Below, one piece after another: positions 32,930 through 61,227 of a DNA stretch of 64,000 nucleotides. The number at the start of each line of letters is the position of its first letter. Position 1 is the stretch's first letter. A program made the translations under genes and the position numbers. A model generated the notes under the pieces. The model made no database searches, was not told the DNA's origin, and worked only from the letters and a program-made list of their open reading frames with translations. Source of the DNA: Yuukianura sp. NJ FZ-2021 (lineage: Eukaryota); NCBI GenBank assembly GCA_046563655.1, contig CM102283.1:3100001-3164000 (forward strand). The letters are read 5' to 3'.

Positions 32930-34358
32930 ATGGGGAATCGACAGAGCGAACCAGAACAACCAGAACAAAGTTATGACGGCACTCGGATTTTCGACAACGC
33001 CTCGGTAAGTTTCAAAATTTTGAAAAATTCAAAAGTTTCAAAATAGTTAGTTTCTTTTTCTATGTAGATCCTTGCCCAAATCATGAATGCAACTCCATCG
33101 GACGAGATGTTGGAACTCCGCCGTGTAAACAAGACCTTCAACGCCATCGCGTGCAACATTTTGAAAGAGCGCGGGAACAGTGTTCGTCCACTTCGGCACG
33201 AAGTTGAGTTGGTTCGGTTTTTGGAAACGATGGTAACGCATCATCGTGCAAACCAATCAGGAGACGACTTTCCCTACTCCGACTACACTCTTCATGTCGC
33301 CAAAATGTCGCAACGCAGTATCGACCGATTCTGCACGGAAATGTCCGGACGTGTCCGGAAACTCACGATTAGCATGCTTCTGGCCCGAACCGAGGAGGAT
33401 TTCTTGGAATGTGTCTGCAGTGCCTATTCGTTGATTGGTAAATTTTGAGAAAAAAAAAACTGACAATTTCTGAAAAATGTTCAGTTTTAGTTTCATTTTT
33501 TCTAAATTCGTTTCAGATTCAGCGGCAGACCAGTTTCGGTTCGGAAATCCTCGGAAGTCGGTCAAAGGCAAGACAATTCAATTGCTCCAGGCTTTTCCGG
33601 ATATGGAGCATCTCTGTTTGGAAGTGAATGACGACGTTGACTTTAGCACTTTGACTGCAACTGACCTCGTGACCTTGCCAATCTACCCGAAAATGAGAGT
33701 TTTCGAGTGGCGGGAGATTCATATTCAACGGCCCGACGCTCCACCACAGGAACCGGAAAACCCGAATTCATTTCTAGGCGGAATCGTTCGGCGGACGACA
33801 ATTTTGGAACATCTCCGAATCCACCGAAACGCTCGTGGCATGTCGTCGGCCATTCGGGACGTTCCGGCACTCGTGTCGAACCTTCGAAACCGTCCGGCAT
33901 TGTGGCTCGACACGACTTTTCCGCTGATTCTCACTGGTGAAAACCAACCATCGCTGGAGTTCATTCGGCAGCTCAGTCGTCGACGATTTTGCAACGTTCG
34001 ATCGCTGGCGCTGACTCTTGGTTGTCCGGACGACGGCGTCATGACGGAGGTCAATCGCTTCATTGCACTTCAAGCTCCTGTACTGCAGTATCTGACGCTC
34101 AAAGTCTATGGTGACGATAGCCACGGTCAAGGTCAAGGTCAAAGTCAAGGTCAAGGTCACTATCCGTTATTGATTCCGGTTCTTCCTCGTCTGGTTTACC
34201 TCAAAATCCGCCTTATCGCTTGGCCTCTCACCGACGTCCAGCCGAATCCACTCACGCATGCGAATTTCCCAAGTCTGAAGAACTTTGGGATTGGCCAAAG
34301 CAGTATTTGCGGAATTCCAGTCGACGGTGCCATTTTCATTAATGGAGGCCTGGATTGA
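32930..34358 (+). CDS. Divergent F-box/LRR-like protein, 3 exons (32930-33004, 33068-33437, 33517-34358)
   Basis: Exons join in frame; IFDNAS|ILAQIMNATPSDEMLELRRVNKTFNAIA resembles an F-box; downstream LxxLxL repeats (MEHLCL, LEHLRI, VRSLAL, LQYLTL, LVYLKI). Confidence 0.65.
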
Positions 34359-35019: not shown

Positions 35020-38000
35020 CTACTTTTTAGAAAATCTGGAGCGACCTGCAGTTGAAGTCCGTTTTGAAAAGAGCTCTTTGTCGGCCGAAGTGGCACGAAA
35101 ATTCAAAAAATGAAAAGTGGGCGGGTCAATGAGGTCATGCTGATGAAGAAGCTTCTGAGTCTCTTCAGAGGTCAAAAGGTCACGAGTACGCACCGGAGGA
35201 ATTGTTGTGTAGTTCAGCGGTCTCCCATATGAGTCAAGGTCATCGCAAAACTTAAAGGGCTCACCCTCCTCAGGGTACTTCAAGTACGCACAACTAATGT
35301 CCCGCTTTTTTGTCTAAAAATTTTTCAAAAACTCAAAATCTGAAAGAGATTTTCAAAATTTTGGAAATTCTTACATAGTTTCTTGATCCTGGACAGTACG
35401 GAACAGTAAGGTGAAGATTATTTCCAGCGAATTCTTTGTACTTGAGATTCCACGTTGAAGAGTCCATATCGTACGACATGTTGTTTTCAATTAAGTCAAG
35501 AGCAGTTTTCGGAATGAAATTTTCAATTATGGCTTTTTCCCGGTAAATTTCAAAATTTAGTTTTTTCAATTCTCCCTCCAACGCTTCACGTTCAGCTTTT
35601 TCTTCTTGGATTGCAATTTGGTCCGCAAGTTGCTCCCGTTTCTTAATTTTTGTCCACTTTTCAATTTCTTTTTGAAGTCGCTCGTGTTCCTCTTGGAGTT
35701 CAAGGACACGCGCCTCCCAAGCAGTTTTCTCAGCCTAAAAACATCAAAATTTCAGAACAAATCTTTTCAAAAACCAAAATTTTGAAAAACCATTTTGGAC
35801 GTGAGCGATGTCTGGAGCTTGGACTGTTCTTGACGTCGATGTTCCAGTTCGATCATACATCGCTGGAGATAGGCCTCTTGTTCCTGTGATTTGTCCAGAA
35901 GCGATTCTCCACCGACCATAATTTTCTTTTGAATTGCGTCAAGTTTTTTCTGGAGTTCTGCTTTTTTCTGTTGTTGTTGACGCCAAGTGACGACGTCATC
36001 TTTGAGCCGAAACAAAGTGGATCGCTTATCTTCTGCTTCTGCGCGGGCAGCAGTGGACAGACGATGCTGCGTCTCTAGCTCTCCTTTGATACCGCACAAC
36101 ATCTCGTCGTCTTCTGCGTTTCCTTCTTCTGGTTCGTCAGGCTCTAAGTTTCAAAATTATGAAAAAAAAATTCCAAGAAATTGACAAAAAATAAAAAACT
36201 TTAGCGAAATTTGCTCAGAAGGAAAAGATGTTCATCGAATTTTGGCAACGCTGTGCAGTTGGGAGGAAATTGTCAACGCTGTGCAATTATGATTAAAAAT
36301 AAGAAATTTTGGCATCTTTGTGCAGTTGAGAGTAAAAACAAAAAATTTTGGCACGCTGTACAGACGTGGGAAAAAATAAAAAATTTTGGCAACGCTGTGC
36401 AGATATGGGCAAAAATAATTTTGGAAAGCAAACCAGAAGAAATTTCTTCGCGCTTTTGGCGCGTAACTCACCATTTTTCCTTTCTTGAATGACTTTTTGA
36501 AGTTTGAAATCTTCTTCCTCCAATTGGCGTTTCAGAGCTTCAATTTCGTTTTCAAATTGACGCAGAATGGCGTCTTTCGGATCTTCGTTGATATGAGCAT
36601 GATTTGTAATGCGTTTGGCTCTGTCTGCATAACGCAAAGTGCTTAGGGTCTCTTCATAGTTGTCATCAGCTGGACCCACGTTGGCAATCTCTCCAAAAAA
36701 TCAGAGTATTTCTGAAACGTGAATTTCTCGCGCTCTTAAAATTCTTACGCGCCAAAATCGCGAACTCACCATGACTGTTTTTGCATTTCCACCTAAAGAA
36801 TCTTGTAAAAGACGCGTCAATTTTGAATCGCGATAAGGAATATGTGATTTTCCATCAACCAAAGCAGAAATGACGTTCCCCAGAGCGGAAAGTGACAGAT
36901 TGATTTTCGCGCCTTCTTTCAACCGAATTCCAGTCGCTCCTGATTTTCCCGCTCTTTCAGAGCCCTTGGAAATTCAAATTCAAAATTTAAAAACTCAGTT
37001 TGACTACTACCACCAGAATTTTAAAATTTACCGCTAAATCGACCAAATTGAGCTTTCCCATTCGAAAACTCTGCCGTTTTGAATCTTCCGTGCTGCACTC
37101 AACTGTCACTGTGAAAATGGCATGAGAGCGCGAACTTTCTAAATTCATGTTTGTAGATGCCACGGATCCTGTACAACAAAATATAATTATTATAACATAA
37201 AATGTAATAAAGTATATAAAATAATTAATACATGTTAATATATTACTGCTTCTCTTTCCAACTGCAAGGATTCTGTCCATGTCCTTCTCACTTTTGACTA
37301 CAAACGAACTCAAATTTTTGACGTAAACTCCAGTTTCGCCTTCTTTGATTTCCAATTTCTTTGGCGCGTCTTTTCCTATGAGCAGGTCACGAATTTCCTC
37401 ATTGTAAATTTCCATGTACGTCACACGAACCAAAAACCTTGAGAAAAAAGAAAAAATTTTGAAATTTTCAAAATTTCGAATTTCAAAAGATTCATTCTGA
37501 GTTTGAATTTGGTAGAAATTACTTCGAAGTGCCACTTTCCTTTGAAATGTGACTGAAAATTTGAGCAAACGAATTCGGAATGATGCCTTTCAGCTCTGGG
37601 ACGGATTTATCTCCCTCCTAAAATATTTAAAACACATATTAATAATAATAATCTATGTAATAACTAAAATATATCATATAATATATTAATATATAATATG
37701 TAAACCATATTTAAATATGTTAACTTTGCAATACCATCGTGAAAGTTTTTCCAGTCCTGGAATTTCAGAGAGAAAAAAAATTTTTTTAAATGCTATTTTG
37801 CTTTTGGTTTAGTTTTTTGAGTTTATGCGGCATCTTACCCTGTTTGTCCACTGATAACCAACAAAAGTTCGAATTTTCAAATTAGAACAAATTTTCAAAT
37901 TTTAATATTTTTTTTTGAAAACTGAATTTTTACTAGGCAAAGATAGTTCCGTTGTAGCCTTCAATGACATTCTGCACAATAGGACGTGCTACTTGGTTGT

Positions 38001-40228: not shown

Positions 40229-43200
40229 TCACAGTAGCAGAAGAGGGAGGAGCAAAAACACAATGAAGAAGCCATGATGCAACCACCGCGATCCAGATTC
40301 TAAAAATTTTGAAAAAAATAATAATTTTTTTTTGAGTTATTTTTGAAAATATTAACTTTCGAAGCAGAGTGGTACAAATGTTGTTGAATTTTAGCCAGAG
40401 TGTCGAAAAGTTTACCTGTAGATTCGACTCCTGAAAAATAAAAAATGAAATGACAAAGGTCATTGACTTGAATTGTTCATACTTACTGTTATTTAGGTCA
40501 TATATTTTTAATATATTATATTTGAATATATTATTATTTCTTAATAAATTATTATATTATAATATATCTATTACCGTAAGGTACTTCCTTTCGTTCTACG
40601 TAGCTCGTGTTGGGTATGCGGATATCACAGATAAATTTAGTAGAATTGGGAAGGAGAGTTGCATTGAAGGAGTTGAAAATTCGGACGTCGTAAGCTCCGG
40701 CGACATGCGCTGACTCTTCGTTCATCTCAGTTAACCTAAAAAAAATTTAAGAAAAAAACAGGTTTTTTTTTTTCATTTTGGAAGCAGAATAATTTCCAAA
40801 ATTTTGAAATTTTACTTCACACGATTTTTGTCCTTTTCATAAGAAACAGAAAGTTTGGCTTCTGGATAAGTTCGACTCGCCCAACAGGAAATGGTGACGC
40901 TAGTGTCATTCTCTGTGCTGGTCACCTCCAGGTCATACGCTTTGGGTTTTGCTGAAATGCGAAAAAATTTTCTTTCAAAATCCCGGAATTCCAAAAATCA
41001 AAACTTGTTTTTCAAAAAATTTGAAACGGAAGTGTGTTTACAGTATACAATTAGCAGCGATCCCTCAGTTTTGTGACCCTGAAAAAATTGCAAAAAAAGT
41101 TGCAAAAAAAAGTTAAAGTCGACATTCTTTAGAGTTGCAATCAACTAGCCTTAACAATCAAGGTCAAAGGTTAAAATTCAAAGGTCAATGGTCAAAACTC
41201 AAAGGTCAAAGGCCATCTTACGTCACTTGTGGAGACATCGCATCTGTAGTTGCCGCTAACATCAGTTGTTGGATTCATAATTCTGATTCCTCTGTACATT
41301 TCCCAGGGTACAGTGGACACTGTGTGGTTGAAGTCAATTCTATTTTCCAGAATACCGTAGGCTGCCCGTATTTGGTGGTCAGGAATCCACTTGTACACTG
41401 GCTTCTCTTCTTTGAGGTCACTGTGGTGCCAGGTCACGACGAGCAGACTAGTGACATTGTCTCTCAAAGTGTACTCGCAGTCAAGGTCAACATGGGAAAC
41501 ACTCCCGTTCTCCAGGGAATGCGGCACAGACAGTCGCCGAATCTCAACGCCATTAGAGTCTTGCGCAGACTCAGTCGGATCACTCCGCTTGATGCCTTTT
41601 CCTGCTTACAAATGTTTAAGCTTTTTTAAAGATTTCGACTAACAACAAATTCCAACTTTTGAGTTCCGGAGTGCTGGAATTTTAAAATTTCAAAAAACGT
41701 ATAACAGATTTAAAAAAAAAGATGAAGAATTTCTTGAGTTAGAAGTGATTGCGATTCAAAAAATTTTTGAACCTGAGGTGGTCGTTCTATTTCAAGAATC
41801 TTCATTCTATTTCAGATGTGATGTGATTTCAAAATTTCGAGAATTTGAAGTGGCCTTGAAATTTGGAAATTTTGTTTACGAATTTTGAAACACGCCTGCT
41901 GACCTCTGCGAAAGGTCACCGAATGTTCGATCTGCAGCGTAAAGGTTACGCCGCACTACCGAATAGAGAGTGGAAGGTCAAATAAGGTCAAGCACAAACA
42001 ACGAGTCCAATTGTATGAGCTTTATTTAATATAAGAAAGGTAACGGTTGAGAGCTGTTGAAGCTCTGAAGGCTTGGTGGACTCAAATCTGGTGACTGGTC
42101 ACTAAATGAATGACAATGACTGGGGAATCGGAGCTTACTTTTATACCTATTTGGAGGAGTAAGACAACAAGAAATCTAACTCCACTGTGGAGTAAAACAA
42201 GGACGAATCTAACTCCAATGTGGAGTAAAATCTAGGCGTAGGTAAAATGCATGTTTTTAGGCTAATTTAAGACTATGGAAATTGACACAAAGGTAAAAGA
42301 TTAAGACAGAGTATGAAGGTTACAGGCTAGGTTGTCCTTAGTTCTGAAGAAGCTTGTTTCTTCTGAACATATTCCCGAGCGGCGGGCGCGGAAGACGTGG
42401 GCGTAGTGTCCAGGGCGTAGAAATGGGATGAGCCGAAGAGGGCGTCGTAGTCAGGGCGCAGGGCGCAAAAACCCAGAGAGGATGGACGAGACGGCAGGGG
42501 GTGACCTCACCGGACGATCCAGACGATTGGAAGTCCCACGACGCAGGGCGCTGAGACTCACGAGGATGGATGCGGCGGCGAGGGGTGACCTCGGACGACG
42601 ATCCAGGCGATAGGAAGTCCCACGACGCAGGGCGCGGAGACTGACGAGGATGGATGCGGCGGCGGGCGTTGACCTCACCAGACGATCCAGGCGATAGGAA
42701 GTCCCACGACGCAGGGCGCGGAGACTGACGAGGATGGATGCGGCGGCGAGGGGTGACCTCAGACGACGATCCAGGCGATGGATGTCCTTGCGGACGGCGT
42801 TCCCACGTCGCGTGGTTGCACACGGCGTAGAGAAGGAGCAGCCTGAGGTTGGCTTTGTCGAGGGCGTAAATTTCGGATGAGGTGAATGCGGCGGGGCGTT
42901 GACCTCAGGCGACGGATCCAGCTTAATGAGGAGGCCTCGGCTGGTTGCAGCATAGCAGCTGCGGCGGAACCCATGGTGGAGCCGGTGGGGCGTTGCCAGG
43001 GCGTAAAATCGAGAAGGATGGATGCGGCGGCGAGGGTTGACCTCACCGGACGATCCAGACGAACGAAGATGGCAGTGGAACTTGTTCCCACATTGTGTGG
43101 AGAGGTCACACGAGCACAGTCTGGAGGTCACTTGGTGACGAACAAGGAAAGAACGGAGGTCACTTGGTGACGGACGAGGAAAGCTCAATTGGAAAAATGT

Positions 43201-43954
43201 TCGATCTGCAGCGTAAAGGTTACGCCGCACTACCGAATAGAGAGTGGAAGGTCAAATAAGGTCAAGCACAAACAACGAGTCCAATTGTATGAGCTTTATT
43301 TAATATAAGAAAGGTAACGGTTGAGAGCTGTTGAAGCTCTGAAGGCTTGGTGGACTCAAATCTGGTGACTGGTCACTAAATGAATGACAATGACTGGGGA
43401 ATCGGAGCTTACTTTTATACCTATTTGGAGGAGTAAGACAACAAGAAATCTAACTCCACTGTGGAGTAAAACAAGGACGAATCTAACTCCAATGTGGAGT
43501 AAAATCTAGGCGTAGGTAAAATGCATGTTTTTAGGCTAATTTAAGACTATGGAAATTGACACAAAGGTAAAAGATTAAGACAGAGTATGAAGGTTACAGG
43601 CTAGGTTGTCCTTAGTTCTGAAGAAGCTTGTTTCTTCTGAACACCGAAGCTTAACGAACTTTTTTTTTGAAAAACCAGAGCACATCTTGCCACGCGCTCT
43701 GTAGTGCGTGACTGAGCGTCCGGCAATCTTACACTTTTGAATAATTTTGGATTAAAAAAAAGACTACATTCCAAAATTCTAAAAAAAAAGTATGGAAACT
43801 CCAAAATTGGAATTCATAAAGTTGAAACCAATTTTTTTCCCCAAAATTTTGAAAAGATTTTCTTACCATGTACTAGCCCAACGTAGACGATGCAAAGTAC
43901 GGCAAGTTTCCAAGAATAATGCTTCGTCCACACGCCCTTTTCTTTTGTCTCCAT
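40229..43954 (-). CDS. Cell-surface two-Ig-domain protein (beat-like), probable GPI anchor; intron 1 carries the LTR element
   Basis: Exon1 METKEKGVWTKHYSWKLAVLCIVYVGLVHG (signal); V-set DLDCEY...VTWH...PVYKWIP...DVSGNYRCDVS; second Ig ISCWASRTYPEAKL...FICDIRIP; 15-nt micro-exon 40416-40430; ends SGSRWLHHGFFIVFLLLPLLLL*. Confidence 0.8.
41924..43643 (-). mobile_element. Non-autonomous LTR retroelement (TRIM-like, BEL/Pao-style ends), 1720 bp
   Basis: Two 446-bp LTRs (41924-42369, 43198-43643), identical on reading, TGTTC...GAACA termini, 5-bp TSD CCGAA (41919-41923, 43644-43648); minus-strand TATAAAA (43419-43413) and AATAAA (43300-43295); short PPT-like CGGGAATA before 3' LTR; no gag/pol motifs. 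Confidence 0.95.
42478..42780. repeat. 84-bp GC-rich tandem array (~3.6 copies) inside the LTR element
   Basis: gaggatgga recurs at 42478, 42562, 42646, 42730; partial copies near 42880-42920 and 43015-43060. Confidence 0.92.
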
Positions 43955-45006: not shown

Positions 45007-46066
45007 ATGGCTGACAAGCCAAGTTCTTCTCAGCTAAATTCTGCCAAACCAAGTCAAACTGAAGCCAATGTTGATCCGAGCCGATCACAAGACCCCGGAG
45101 ATCTTCGGCGGGAAAGCTTCATCGCTCCACCAAATCTGCGCAGACGTCGCTGCAATTTCACACCCACTTGTGGATGTATTCTCGAAAACACCATCTATGT
45201 GTGCATCGTAGTTGGAACTTTAGTAAAACAAAGACAAAATGCTTTAGGTTTTCAAAATCATTTTCAAAATTTTGGATTTTAACATATTTTCCAAAATTTC
45301 GTAGATGGATATCGCCTGCATTGCATTCTGGACTTCCTTGCTTGCTTGGAATCCCACTGACTGGAACTATCACCGTGCCAGAGATACTGCCGGTACGTCT
45401 TAGTGTGCTGCTTTAGCTAATGTCAAAAGTCAAAGGTCAAAGTTCAAAGGTCAAAGGTCAAAGGTCAAAGGTCAAAGGTCAAACTAACTTCAACTAATGC
45501 TTTTCTTAGTTCAAACATTGGTCATGCATTGCTTCTGTATCCTCTTCAACTTTCTCCTCTTCTTTGGAGTCTCAATAGTAAAAAAAAATCAAAAATTACA
45601 GTTTACCTGGGCAAATTTAAAAGTTCAAATTTTTCCTGACGTTTAAAATTCGAACTGCAATTCTCTAATAATTTTATGTTTTCGTCAGGAAAACGTTTTG
45701 CTCTGCCTGTGTTGGGTAATGATGCGTGGAATTTGGTACTTCACGGCCTTGGTCAACTGGATCCGATCAAGTGACATTTTACGTTTTGATGGGAAAATGA
45801 CCGGACCTAACAAAGTGATGGTGACTCTTGATGACAAAGTGAAGATGGTGTGGAAAATTACGTTCTGGGGCTATGGTCCACTCATGGCCATCTACGTCTA
45901 CTTTACCATCATTGTCGTCGTCTTCATATGTCGCCTCATCACGATCACGGAGCGTCGTCGCCTCAACGTCCGTCAAGTCCAGGGCATCGTCTTCACTGAT
46001 GTCAATCCAGCTCGTCTCTCAGTTATTCCTATGCCACCAACTCCGGAGGAGCAGCAAAGCGCATAA
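45007..46066 (+). CDS. Four-transmembrane protein of unknown function, 4 exons
   Basis: MADKPSSS...CGCILENTIYVCIVVGTL|MDIACIAFWTSLLAW...|VQTLVMHCFCILFNFLLFFGVSI|ENVLLCLCWVMMR...YFTIIVVVFICRL; in-frame GT-AG joins. Confidence 0.7.
45423..45483. repeat. (AAAGGTC)n heptamer microsatellite
   Basis: tcaaaggtcaaaggtc... about 8 units in an intron. Confidence 0.9.
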
Positions 46067-58501: not shown

Positions 58502-61227
58502 ATGGAACAAGCTCAACCTGGAAAACCACAGAGGGTGCCGAAGGTGGCGAAGGTAATTTTAATTGCAGTTCAATTTAAAAATCTGCTGGTTAATCGTTAG
58601 ATTTCAGATGTTCAACTCATCATTGTTCGTTTCGTTACAGGTAAAGAACAAGGCTCCCGCAGAAATCCAGATAACTGCTGAACAGCTTCTGCGCGAAGCA
58701 AAGGAACGTGATTTGGAAATTGTAGCTGCTCCGCCGAAACAGAAGATCTCTGATCCAGAAGAACTTGCTGCCTATCGACTCAAGAAACGAAAGGGATTTG
58801 AAGATAACATTCGCAAAAATCGGTACGAATTTCAACTAATTTCCTCTTCTCTTCAATTAAGACAACTTCATGCTAACATTGAAATTTGTGTTTTGCAGAA
58901 TGGTGATTGGAAATTGGTTGAAATACTCAGCATGGGAAGAGTCGCAGGGAGAAATTCAGCGAGCGCGGAGTGTGTACGAAAGAGCGCTGGACGTGGATCA
59001 TCGCAACATCACTCTATGGCTGCGATACGCCGAAATGGAAATGCGGGCACGTCAAGTACGTCAACGTTACTAACGTTACCGTCAAGTTTACTCAAAGTTA
59101 CTCCAAATTTTGCTATTCTAAACTCTGTCAATTTCTGTCACAGGTCAACCATGCCAGGAATCTTTGGGATCGAGCCATCACTGTCATGCCGAGAGTGAAC
59201 CAGTTTTGGTACAAGTATACATACATGGAGGAGATGCTTGGGAATGTCGCTGGATGTCGCCAAGTTTTTGAACGTTGGATGGAATGGCACCCACATGAAC
59301 AAGCTTGGCAAACTTATATCAACTTTGAACTTCGTTACAAAGAAGTAGATCGGGCCAGAGGAATCTACGAGCAGTTCGTCTACACTCACCCAGAAGTTGG
59401 ACACTGGATCAAATATGCCCGATTTGAAGAGAAGCATGGCTACATCCGCTCTGCCCGAAAAGTCTATGAACGGGCCGTTGAATTCTACGGTGAAGATTTC
59501 ATGGACGAACGTCTCTTCATAGCTTTTGCAAAATTTGAAGAGAATCAACGCGAGGTGAGAAAAATTCAATAAAAATTAAACAATTTCAAAAAGTTATAAA
59601 CTTTTTCTAACTTTTTATGATTGTAGCATGATCGTGCCAGAGTAATTTACAAGTACGCTTTGGATAATCTCCCGAAAGATAAATCACAAGACCTCTACAA
59701 AGCCTATACGATTCACGAAAAGAAGTATGGCGACAGAACTGGGATTGAGTCTGTGATTACTTCCAAACGTCGACTTCAGTATGAAGAAAAGCTCAGTTCA
59801 AATCCACTTGACTATGACACTTGGTTTGATCTCCTCAAACTTCTAGAAAACGCAGAAGAAGTAGATTCAGATTTAGTTCGAGAAACTTATGAAAAAGCAA
59901 TTTCACATGTTCCACCAGCTCCGGTGAGTAAACTTTTCAAGTTAGTTAAAAGTTAAAACGAGTTAAAACGTAGGTTAAAAGTTAGTTTTAAACTATTTCA
60001 ACTTTGGTCCATAGGTGAAAACGTACTGGCGTCGATACATTTATCTGTGGATAAACTATGCAGTTTTTGAAGAAATGGAAATGCAAGATGAAGAGAGAGC
60101 GAGACAAGTGTACAAAGCATGCCTCGATTTACTCCCACACAAATCATTCACTTTCGGAAAAATTTGGTTGCTCTATGCCTACTTTGAAGTCCGCAGGAAG
60201 AATTTGCAACAAGCTCGAAAAACTCTGGTAAAACCTAAAAATTTTGAAATTAGCCCCACTTTTTTTAAATTTTGGATTGAAAAAGGCTTACCAATGTGTT
60301 TGTTTCAGGGAACAGCCATCGGAGCATGTCCGAAAGACAAATTATTTCGCGGATACATCGGACTTGAAACGCAGTTACGAGAGTTCGACCGAGCTCGGAT
60401 TTTGTATCAGAAGTTTCTGGAATTCGGACCGGAAAATTGCACGACATGGTTGAGATTTGCTGAACTGGAGTGTCTTCTCGGCGATCTGGAGAGAGCAAGA
60501 GCAATTTACGAGTTGGCTGTAAATCAACCGAGGCTGGACATGCCCGAGATACTTTGGAAAACTTACATTGACTTTGAGATTGAACATGGAGAAACCGAGA
60601 AGGCCAGAGAGCTGTACCATCGTCTTCTGGATCGAACTCAGCATGTCAAGGTGAGTGACAAGCATTCTTCTAAATACTGGATGCTGGATCGCAGTATTTC
60701 GGATACTGGATGCTGGATCATAGTTTTGACACTTGTACTTTTTTTTAGGTGTGGATGAGTTTGGCTCAGTTTGAACTTGGAGTTGGCGACGAGAACTCGA
60801 TAACAGCAGCACGGAAGGTGTTTGAGATGGCCAATGAGCGACTGCGTAACAACGAGAAGGAGGAGCGACTGATGCTGCTGGAGGCTTGGAAAGTATTTGA
60901 GAGTGAAAATGGAGACGAGCAGAGTCAGGCGGACATACTGGACAGACTGCCTAGAAAAATCAAAAAGAGGAGGAAAATTGAAACAGCTGACGGTGTAAGG
61001 ATTTTGAAAAATATGGAATTCAACATTTCACATGTATTTTACTTACCAAAATGCCAACTTTTTTGAATTTTTAGTCGGAAGCAGGATGGGAAGAATATTT
61101 CGATTACATTTTCCCAGAAGACGAAGCAGCCAAACCAAATCTCAAGCTTTTGGCTATGGCGAAGATGTGGAAGAAAAACAAGTTACAGACTAAAAGTGTT
61201 AAATGGACTAATTTTTATGTAAATTAA
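58502..61227 (+). CDS. crn: Crooked neck (CRNKL1/Clf1) HAT-repeat splicing factor
   Basis: [82 protein letters not shown]...[13 protein letters not shown]. Confidence 0.96.

Follow-up and report, generated by a model that had tools for sequence, protein, structure and literature searches.

The window analysed here, a stretch of 64,000 nucleotides (nt) from Yuukianura sp. NJ FZ-2021 (positions 3,100,001 to 3,164,000 of the forward strand of contig CM102283.1, assembly GCA_046563655.1), contains a 1,720-bp long terminal repeat (LTR) retrotransposon on its minus strand at 41924–43643, which was delimited by reading the sequence and by repeat comparison. The sequence that follows its 5' LTR is complementary to the putative polyadenylation site of the same LTR, and the possibility that the element primes from its own polyadenylated RNA end, as an earlier note on this DNA had proposed, is considered below. 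The two LTRs of 446 bp each are 100% identical, with corresponding positions 1274 apart, and they begin with tgttc and end with gaaca, that is, with the short inverted TG..CA ends of LTR retrotransposons. Both flanks of the element carry a 5-bp target duplication, which reads ttcgg on the minus strand. The interior of 828 bp contains no gag or pol frames, and the open reading frames (ORFs) starting with ATG in the element are 61–94 amino acids (aa) long at most. A stop-free frame of 259 aa running across the LTR end and the sequence after it is without Met and has no Pfam match, and the comparison with the protein collection gave no relatives at near or shorter lengths; this frame was judged spurious. 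Thus, the interior being without coding potential, the element is non-autonomous. Contigs from four public DNA runs were aligned on the window, and a joint of the empty site, from 41916 to 43642 with 7 letters in common, was found in three of the four runs (X1, X2 and X5, which represent two organisms). The identical LTRs together with this empty-site allele indicated that the insertion is young and polymorphic, and the element looks recently active.

The signals in the LTR were found to be arranged for transcription of the minus strand. In this sense, the LTR has TATAAA at LTR position 225, then one initiator match each at 257 and 261, then AATAAA at 344 and finally a G/T-rich tract, and G+T amounts to 73% in the 30 nt counted from +10 after AATAAA. 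The AATAAA at 43300–43295 is followed by gctcatacaattgga at 43294–43280 and then by the G/T-rich ctcgttgtttgtgctt, and the identical string is present at 42026–42006; the poly(A) signal and GU-rich tract that the earlier note had placed in both LTRs were confirmed at these positions. The LTR in plus sense has no TATAAA, AATAAA, ATTAAA, initiator match or G/T-rich tract. Motifs of the TATA, initiator and poly(A) type are conserved in animal LTRs according to excerpts of PMC3601003, from which the TCAKTY definition of the initiator was also taken. The order of these motifs on the minus strand alone makes it very probable that the minus strand is the transcribed one, as had been assumed.

The 5' LTR ends with gatcgaaca at 43198 and is followed directly by tttttccaattgagcttt at 43197–43180 (minus strand), the same letters that had been reported before and hereafter called the block. 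The first TGG, with which a primer site for a transfer RNA (tRNA) 3' end would start, lies 108 nt past the 5' LTR, and the lack of TGG in the 107 nt after this LTR excludes a canonical tRNA primer site, which is in agreement with the earlier claim of an LTR element without such a site. A tRNA primer site located farther downstream was also considered and rejected, because the TGG at offset 108 sits in the repeat-rich interior. No tRNA genes were detected in the window, and Rfam models at the gathering threshold gave no match in the window, while three sub-threshold matches in 41800–43800 were judged to be chance. A possible resemblance of the complement of the block to a tRNA D-arm was considered and dropped. 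Within the window, one exact occurrence of the 11-nt core of the block and three with one mismatch were found, which is within chance.

The possible partners of the block were searched by duplex prediction. For the 20 nt past the LTR, the strongest duplex with LTR sequence was the one of LTR 346–365 with post-LTR positions 4–19, at -15.2 kcal/mol. It consists of two exact 8-mers (at LTR 347 and 357) and a 4-nt bulge, by which the previously noticed pairing of 8+6 nt with a bulge of 4 nt was recovered. In the whole element, the next best pairing, at -10.0 kcal/mol, is part of this site, and a separate site reached -9.8 kcal/mol. The fraction of shuffled 20-mers that equalled the observed duplex was 0.0095 (2000 shuffles), and only 1 of 1500 GC-matched natural 20-mers was equally strong and also ended in the predicted cleavage zone. 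When five other junction-adjacent 20-mers were used as controls, four gave p values of 0.41–0.84, and the fifth, which is the same site on the other strand, gave 0.02. Thus, we found that the complementarity is moderately above chance (p about 0.005–0.065 depending on the null) and that it is specific to the block junction.

The register of this pairing with a poly(A) tail was monitored using virtual RNA ends made of cuts at LTR 357–375 plus ten A, for which the observed energy was -18.9 kcal/mol. This value was reached by 12 of 2500 natural 20-mers and by none of 1500 20-mers starting with TTTT, which themselves make up approximately 2.5% of all 20-mers in the window. Addition of the A-tail changed the duplex from -12.7 to -17.4 kcal/mol for a cut at LTR 363 and from -14.7 to -18.4 kcal/mol for a cut at 364, and the 3' end was paired when the tail had 4 A. 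The gain by the tail was approximately 3.7 kcal/mol at cut 364, none at cut 365 and 0.6 kcal/mol at cut 368. LTR 364 lies 15 nt past AAUAAA and immediately before the G/T-rich tract, and this is the position where cleavage is expected in animals.

The LTR and its neighbourhood were further compared with the variants present in the aligned contigs. The summed word depth of the LTRs was many times above that of the flanks and variant contigs were found in two organisms; the high LTR depth and the several variant contigs together suggested that the family is multi-copy. Other copies of the element were not found within the 64-kb window. One contig present in both X1 and X5 matched the LTR end and 43181–43197 and then differed in 13 letters (TGGCTGGCAGGGG, plus strand), and because these 17 LTR-adjacent nt are kept in an otherwise different contig, they behave as a unit. 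In a diverged relative of 1.2–1.7 kb, the alignment resumes at 43176/43177 and continues through the block into the LTR. The LTR variants seen are divergent upstream of about LTR 335–343, whereas the part that begins with the AT-rich motif and runs up to the LTR end is kept, with breakpoints at 43308/43309, 42034/42035 and 42027. Among the differences listed, none falls within 43180–43197 or 43280–43300. At 43204 (twin 41930), near the LTR end, the present copy has A on the plus strand where nearly all other family contigs have G, and it is thus a minor LTR variant.

To our knowledge, the established priming of LTR retroelements takes place in two ways, by a host tRNA, whole or half, and by the self-primer from the 5' end of the Tf1 type. 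The reading that we favour for the present locus, with a probability of roughly 0.3, is that of a young, polymorphic and non-autonomous element that would prime from the 3' end of its own R region. The putative initiation block would be the 17–18 nt adjoining the 5' LTR (T5 run, ccaattg and agcttt), and it would be recognised by the element's own RNA through the last 18 templated nt of R and the first 4–5 A of the tail. The candidate primers are the full-length RNA and a short promoter-proximal RNA of R only, either of which would end with CAAUUGGA and a few A, and the 3'-OH of the annealed primer would be extended into U5 and R, the tail being kept at or trimmed to approximately 4–5 A. If priming took place by fold-back of the 5' copy of R, the strong-stop DNA would contain no R, so that only the 3' end or a separate short RNA of R could serve. 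The transcription start, the cleavage site, the formation of the pairing, the priming and the tail trimming are steps that we infer; of the self-priming interpretation given earlier, the element's anatomy, its strand, the lack of a tRNA site and the specific match in register with a tail held up, and the priming step itself is where it stays conjectural. A more specific proposal, in which the host cleavage and polyadenylation machinery would make the primer, as the 3' end of R or as an R-only RNA of 18 nt plus a few A, for use on the T5-containing block and hence as a third way of priming, appears rather unlikely. If true, it would link the control of poly(A) tail length to retrotransposition, and would offer a concrete and testable third solution of priming that could explain some orphan primer sites, given that no primer is identifiable for several families such as Skipper, DGLT-A and 6% of the plant elements of one survey. 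A full-text literature search found no LTR element described as primed by its polyadenylated end.

Several observations weigh against priming from the polyadenylated end. The RNA start and the cleavage site are predictions. The complementarity is of just moderate significance, and the sequence was already known when the hypothesis was framed. Natural 20-mers that pair as strongly as the block were found at a fraction of 0.065 among 1500 GC-matched ones and of 0.123 among 2922 unmatched random ones from the window, and the palindromes in both arms (caattg and agct) ease such matches. The pairing of the A-tail with the T run that had been proposed earlier was found in register for cuts 363 and 364, and it was lost at the critical end with longer tails, as the 3' end was unpaired at cut 364 with 5 or 10 A; a normal tail of tens of A would leave the 3'-OH unpaired. 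According to the standard retroviral model, the primer is copied back into the primer site with the plus-strand strong-stop DNA in each cycle, which should erase the 4-nt bulge in few cycles, yet the bulge is present together with identical LTRs. The pairing of the block with the LTR segment is absent from both the minimum free energy (MFE) and the centroid folds of the R-U5-leader RNA, where the uuggacuc stretch folds instead with a gagucca-type sequence earlier in R (43357–43351 with 43283–43277). The differences listed between contigs do not establish invariance of the two segments, and a single family was seen, hence no covariation. As to the orientation, the composition favours the plus strand: C+T of the minus strand is 58% in the LTR and 62% in the interior, and purines make up 67% of the 15 nt immediately preceding the LTR on the plus strand, as compared with 53% for the opposite border read on the minus strand.

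The frequency of equally strong natural 20-mers, the palindromes and the predicted folds are also what would be expected if the complementarity was functionless chance and the block a real primer site for a host RNA, for example a small RNA or an internal piece of a tRNA. Primer sites for half-tRNAs account for 2% of plant elements, and 6% have no detectable primer site, in the excerpted part of PMC6317226, and the element DGLT-A has a primer site without an identifiable primer in that of PMC5006619. Chance does not readily account for the fraction of 0.0095 obtained by shuffling, for the results with virtual polyadenylated ends (12 of 2500 and 0 of 1500), for the failure of the other junctions (p 0.41–0.84), or for a templated match whose end coincides with the predicted cleavage site and which is prolonged by the T run. 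We therefore regard a chance match as possible rather than probable.

The same pairing could be regulatory or architectural, either hiding the cleavage site of the 5' LTR, the alternative already named in the earlier note, or tying the polyadenylated 3' end to the leader in aid of the first strand transfer. With transcription starting where predicted, R includes AAUAAA, the 5' copy of which must be suppressed, and the block follows the 5' LTR copy only, so that the site in the 3' LTR would be used; the statistics of the pairing apply here just as they do to priming. The segment at U3-R of HIV-1 that resembles the primer tRNA is said to pair, as 3'-terminal LTR sequence, with the primer-site region, thereby joining the RNA ends, and reportedly promotes minus-strand transfer, HIV being still primed by tRNA. 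Stem-loops of LTR and LTR-adjacent sequences such as the U5 inverted repeat (U5-IR) and the polypurine-tract (PPT) hairpins of SIRE and HIV are described in the excerpts of PMC3601003. In the 5' copy, however, GGA is followed by C and the T run has no partner, so masking fails to explain the T5 run, and there is no gain in the duplex for cuts at 365 or beyond. Furthermore, a predicted hairpin internal to R already covers the cleavage site in both copies, and an active element needs a primer, for which the block is the only conserved LTR-adjacent sequence. A regulatory role in place of priming was thus considered unlikely; if the pairing does control the choice of poly(A) site, the element would be a simple example of an LTR element silencing its 5' poly(A) site. 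The fold of R-U5-leader had a predicted energy of -53.8 kcal/mol (z = -2.42), and 3 of 200 shuffles were as stable. The predicted R hairpin at 43357–43277 encloses AAUAAA, and its position is comparable to that of the retroviral poly(A) hairpin.

The higher purine content at the plus-strand LTR border (67% vs 53%) and the pyrimidine-rich minus strand would suit an element of reversed orientation, in which the plus strand is transcribed, the block, ending with ggaaaaa before the tg of the LTR, is the PPT and the pairing is a PPT-U3 hairpin. Read on the plus strand, the pairing exists just as well (p = 0.02), and PPT-U3 hairpins are described for SIRE and HIV in the excerpts of PMC3601003. The promoter and poly(A) motifs are nevertheless found on the minus-sense LTR alone, and on that probable transcript strand the block does not lie upstream of the 3' LTR, as a PPT-U3 hairpin would require. 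The composition is weak evidence, because the LTR clades Sushi and rGmr1 are reported to have T-rich U3 in the same excerpts (PMC3601003). Past the LTR on the plus strand, the first TGG comes at offset 29 and self-complementarity is lacking (p = 0.84), which leaves no primer candidate in this orientation. A reversal was considered quite improbable. When the corresponding border of the minus strand was checked for a PPT at the 3' LTR, it contained just gggaata, and a variant in run X2 with a contig joint from 42381 to 42647 retains 12 nt of this PPT candidate.

The predicted U5 hairpin at 43228–43208, found in the MFE and centroid folds, lies at the place of the U5-IR-like stem-loop of the Tf1/sushi elements, and Tf1 is said to need such a stem. 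This would agree with self-priming of the Tf1/sushi type, in which the RNA would start at or immediately ahead of the complementary segment, tatattaaataaa would serve both as TATA box and as poly(A) signal, the first bases would fold back onto the block, and RNase H would cut after GGA to yield the primer. The LTR variants have in common the part from the AT-rich motif onward, which suits this reading, and in the excerpts of PMC4600332, PMC5006619 and PMC6317226 such priming is the only demonstrated one without tRNA and is usually predicted from complementarity between LTR and primer site. A dual role of one AT-rich motif in promoter and poly(A) function is reported for some LTRs (excerpts of PMC3601003). 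The element has, against this, a canonical TATA box and two initiator matches approximately 90 nt upstream; the AT-rich motif abuts the segment rather than lying ~30 nt ahead of it, and the T run would be unexplained. The G/T-rich tract after GGA implies an RNA end, and under the standard model R would be near zero and would offer no homology for the first transfer. Priming of this type was considered very unlikely here.

The comparison with known systems nevertheless shows several likenesses. Tf1, Tf2, Tj1 and the sushi group likewise have no tRNA primer, a post-LTR match to their own LTR RNA and a nearby U5 stem-loop, according to the excerpts of PMC4600332 and PMC5006619. There, the stretch that matches the primer site is the mRNA's 5' end, and an RNA duplex is cut by RNase H (PMC4600332, PMC5006619, in the same excerpts), whereas in the present element the segment is the predicted 3' end of R, approximately 90–100 nt downstream of the predicted start. 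In addition, the duplex here has a 4-nt bulge and runs into a T run that can be paired by the A-tail alone, and the element is without a pol gene by which the family could be placed. The Skipper elements of dictyostelids likewise lack TGG and have a pyrimidine run just past the left LTR, for which a new type of self-priming and poly(A) are discussed, although the excerpted account gives no complementary LTR region and its authors judged simple poly(A) priming unlikely (PMC5006619). Here, in contrast, the pyrimidine run has only 7 nt, and the specific 11 nt after it do match the LTR, so the element does not fit the Skipper type.

Pairing of the LTR with sequence just outside it is likewise known for U5-IR, the U5-leader stems and the SIRE and HIV PPT hairpins, as given in the excerpts of PMC3601003. 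These structures flank a tRNA site or a polypurine tract and are no substitute for the primer, whereas no tRNA site is present between or near the arms here. The copia-type half-tRNA primer sites similarly have no TGG start, and they match internal tRNA-Met or tRNA-Ile (excerpts of PMC6317226). The TRIM and LARD elements likewise have two LTRs and a short non-coding interior and are mobilised in trans. With 1.72 kb and LTRs of 446 bp, the present element falls between the usual sizes of these two classes, and TRIMs normally keep a tRNA-type primer site. The positions of the features are collected in Table 1.

Table 1. Features of the LTR retrotransposon in window coordinates, in minus-strand order.
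Feature	Position	Strand	Basis
Target-site duplication, upstream copy (ttcgg)	43644..43648	-	Sequence and empty-site joint
5' LTR, 446 bp, tgttc start, gaaca end	43198..43643	-	Identical to 3' LTR
TATA box (tataaaag), LTR 225–232	43412..43419	-	Motif scan
Two overlapping initiator-like matches (TCAKTY), LTR 257 and 261; predicted start, near which R would begin	43378..43387	-	Prediction
AATAAA poly(A) signal, LTR 344–349 (3' LTR twin 42021–42026)	43295..43300	-	Motif scan
LTR segment complementary to the block (aaagctcatacaattgga, LTR 347–364); its end is the predicted cleavage site	43280..43297	-	Duplex prediction
G/T-rich stretch past the predicted cleavage site, start of U5	43264..43276	-	Sequence
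Predicted U5 hairpin near the LTR end, U5-IR-like position	43208..43228	-	MFE and centroid
Post-LTR block tttttccaattgagcttt, candidate primer-binding site not of tRNA type	43180..43197	-	Sequence and duplex tests
Remaining C-rich interior without coding potential; 84-bp tandem repeats at ~42457–42787	42370..43179	-	Repeats, ORFs, Pfam
Weak PPT candidate (cgctcgggaata) adjoining the 3' LTR	42370..42381	-	Sequence
3' LTR	41924..42369	-	Self-comparison
Twin of the complementary segment in the 3' LTR; candidate 3' terminus of the processed RNA	42006..42023	-	LTR identity
Target-site duplication, downstream copy	41919..41923	-	Sequence and empty-site joint

The LTR and the leader contain further repeated motifs. 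An inverted repeat with 9 of 10 bp matched (ttcagaagaa ... ttcttcagaa) is present at the LTR start, at 43641–43616 (LTR 3–28), and on the opposite strand it would be the end of U5. The region 43449–43500 (twin 42175–42226) in U3 contains two units of about 30 nt, each with the palindrome actccacaktggagt, 30–90 nt upstream of the TATA box; this arrangement looks like a duplicated enhancer or factor-binding site, and the unit also gave a sub-threshold Rfam match to a snoRNA, which is probably chance. The leader at 43170–43120 contains two copies of gtcaccaagtgac and R contains gtgaccagtcac, both of them short palindromes of hairpin type with a conceivable role in dimerisation or packaging. Searches of public collections with patterns of the element gave no match in viral contigs (two patterns) or in contigs of prokaryote genomes (one pattern), and the single match of a U5 pattern in metagenome contig L001 was rejected as a chance 20-mer match in unrelated AT-rich sequence.

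In the surrounding window, an ORF of 293 aa at 33477–34358 (plus strand) has no Pfam match; the look-alikes proposed for it by a language model are F-box proteins, mostly fungal, which is odd for an animal genome. An exon for part of a kinesin motor domain was found at 36987–37568 on the minus strand. The region 58520–61185 on the plus strand contains a gene for a splicing factor of the crooked-neck/CRNKL1 type with HAT repeats and introns of approximately 50–100 nt, and its product shows 59–71% identity to those of diverse animals, none of them a near-identical match. A fungal host, which the F-box look-alikes had suggested, was rejected in view of this gene, whose animal matches and short introns point to an animal. 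On either side of the element, at 41139–41215 and 45412–45495, approximately 4.2 kb apart, there are arrays of a 7-bp unit of the aaaggtc/aggtca type, and this unit includes a hexamer known as a nuclear-receptor half-site.

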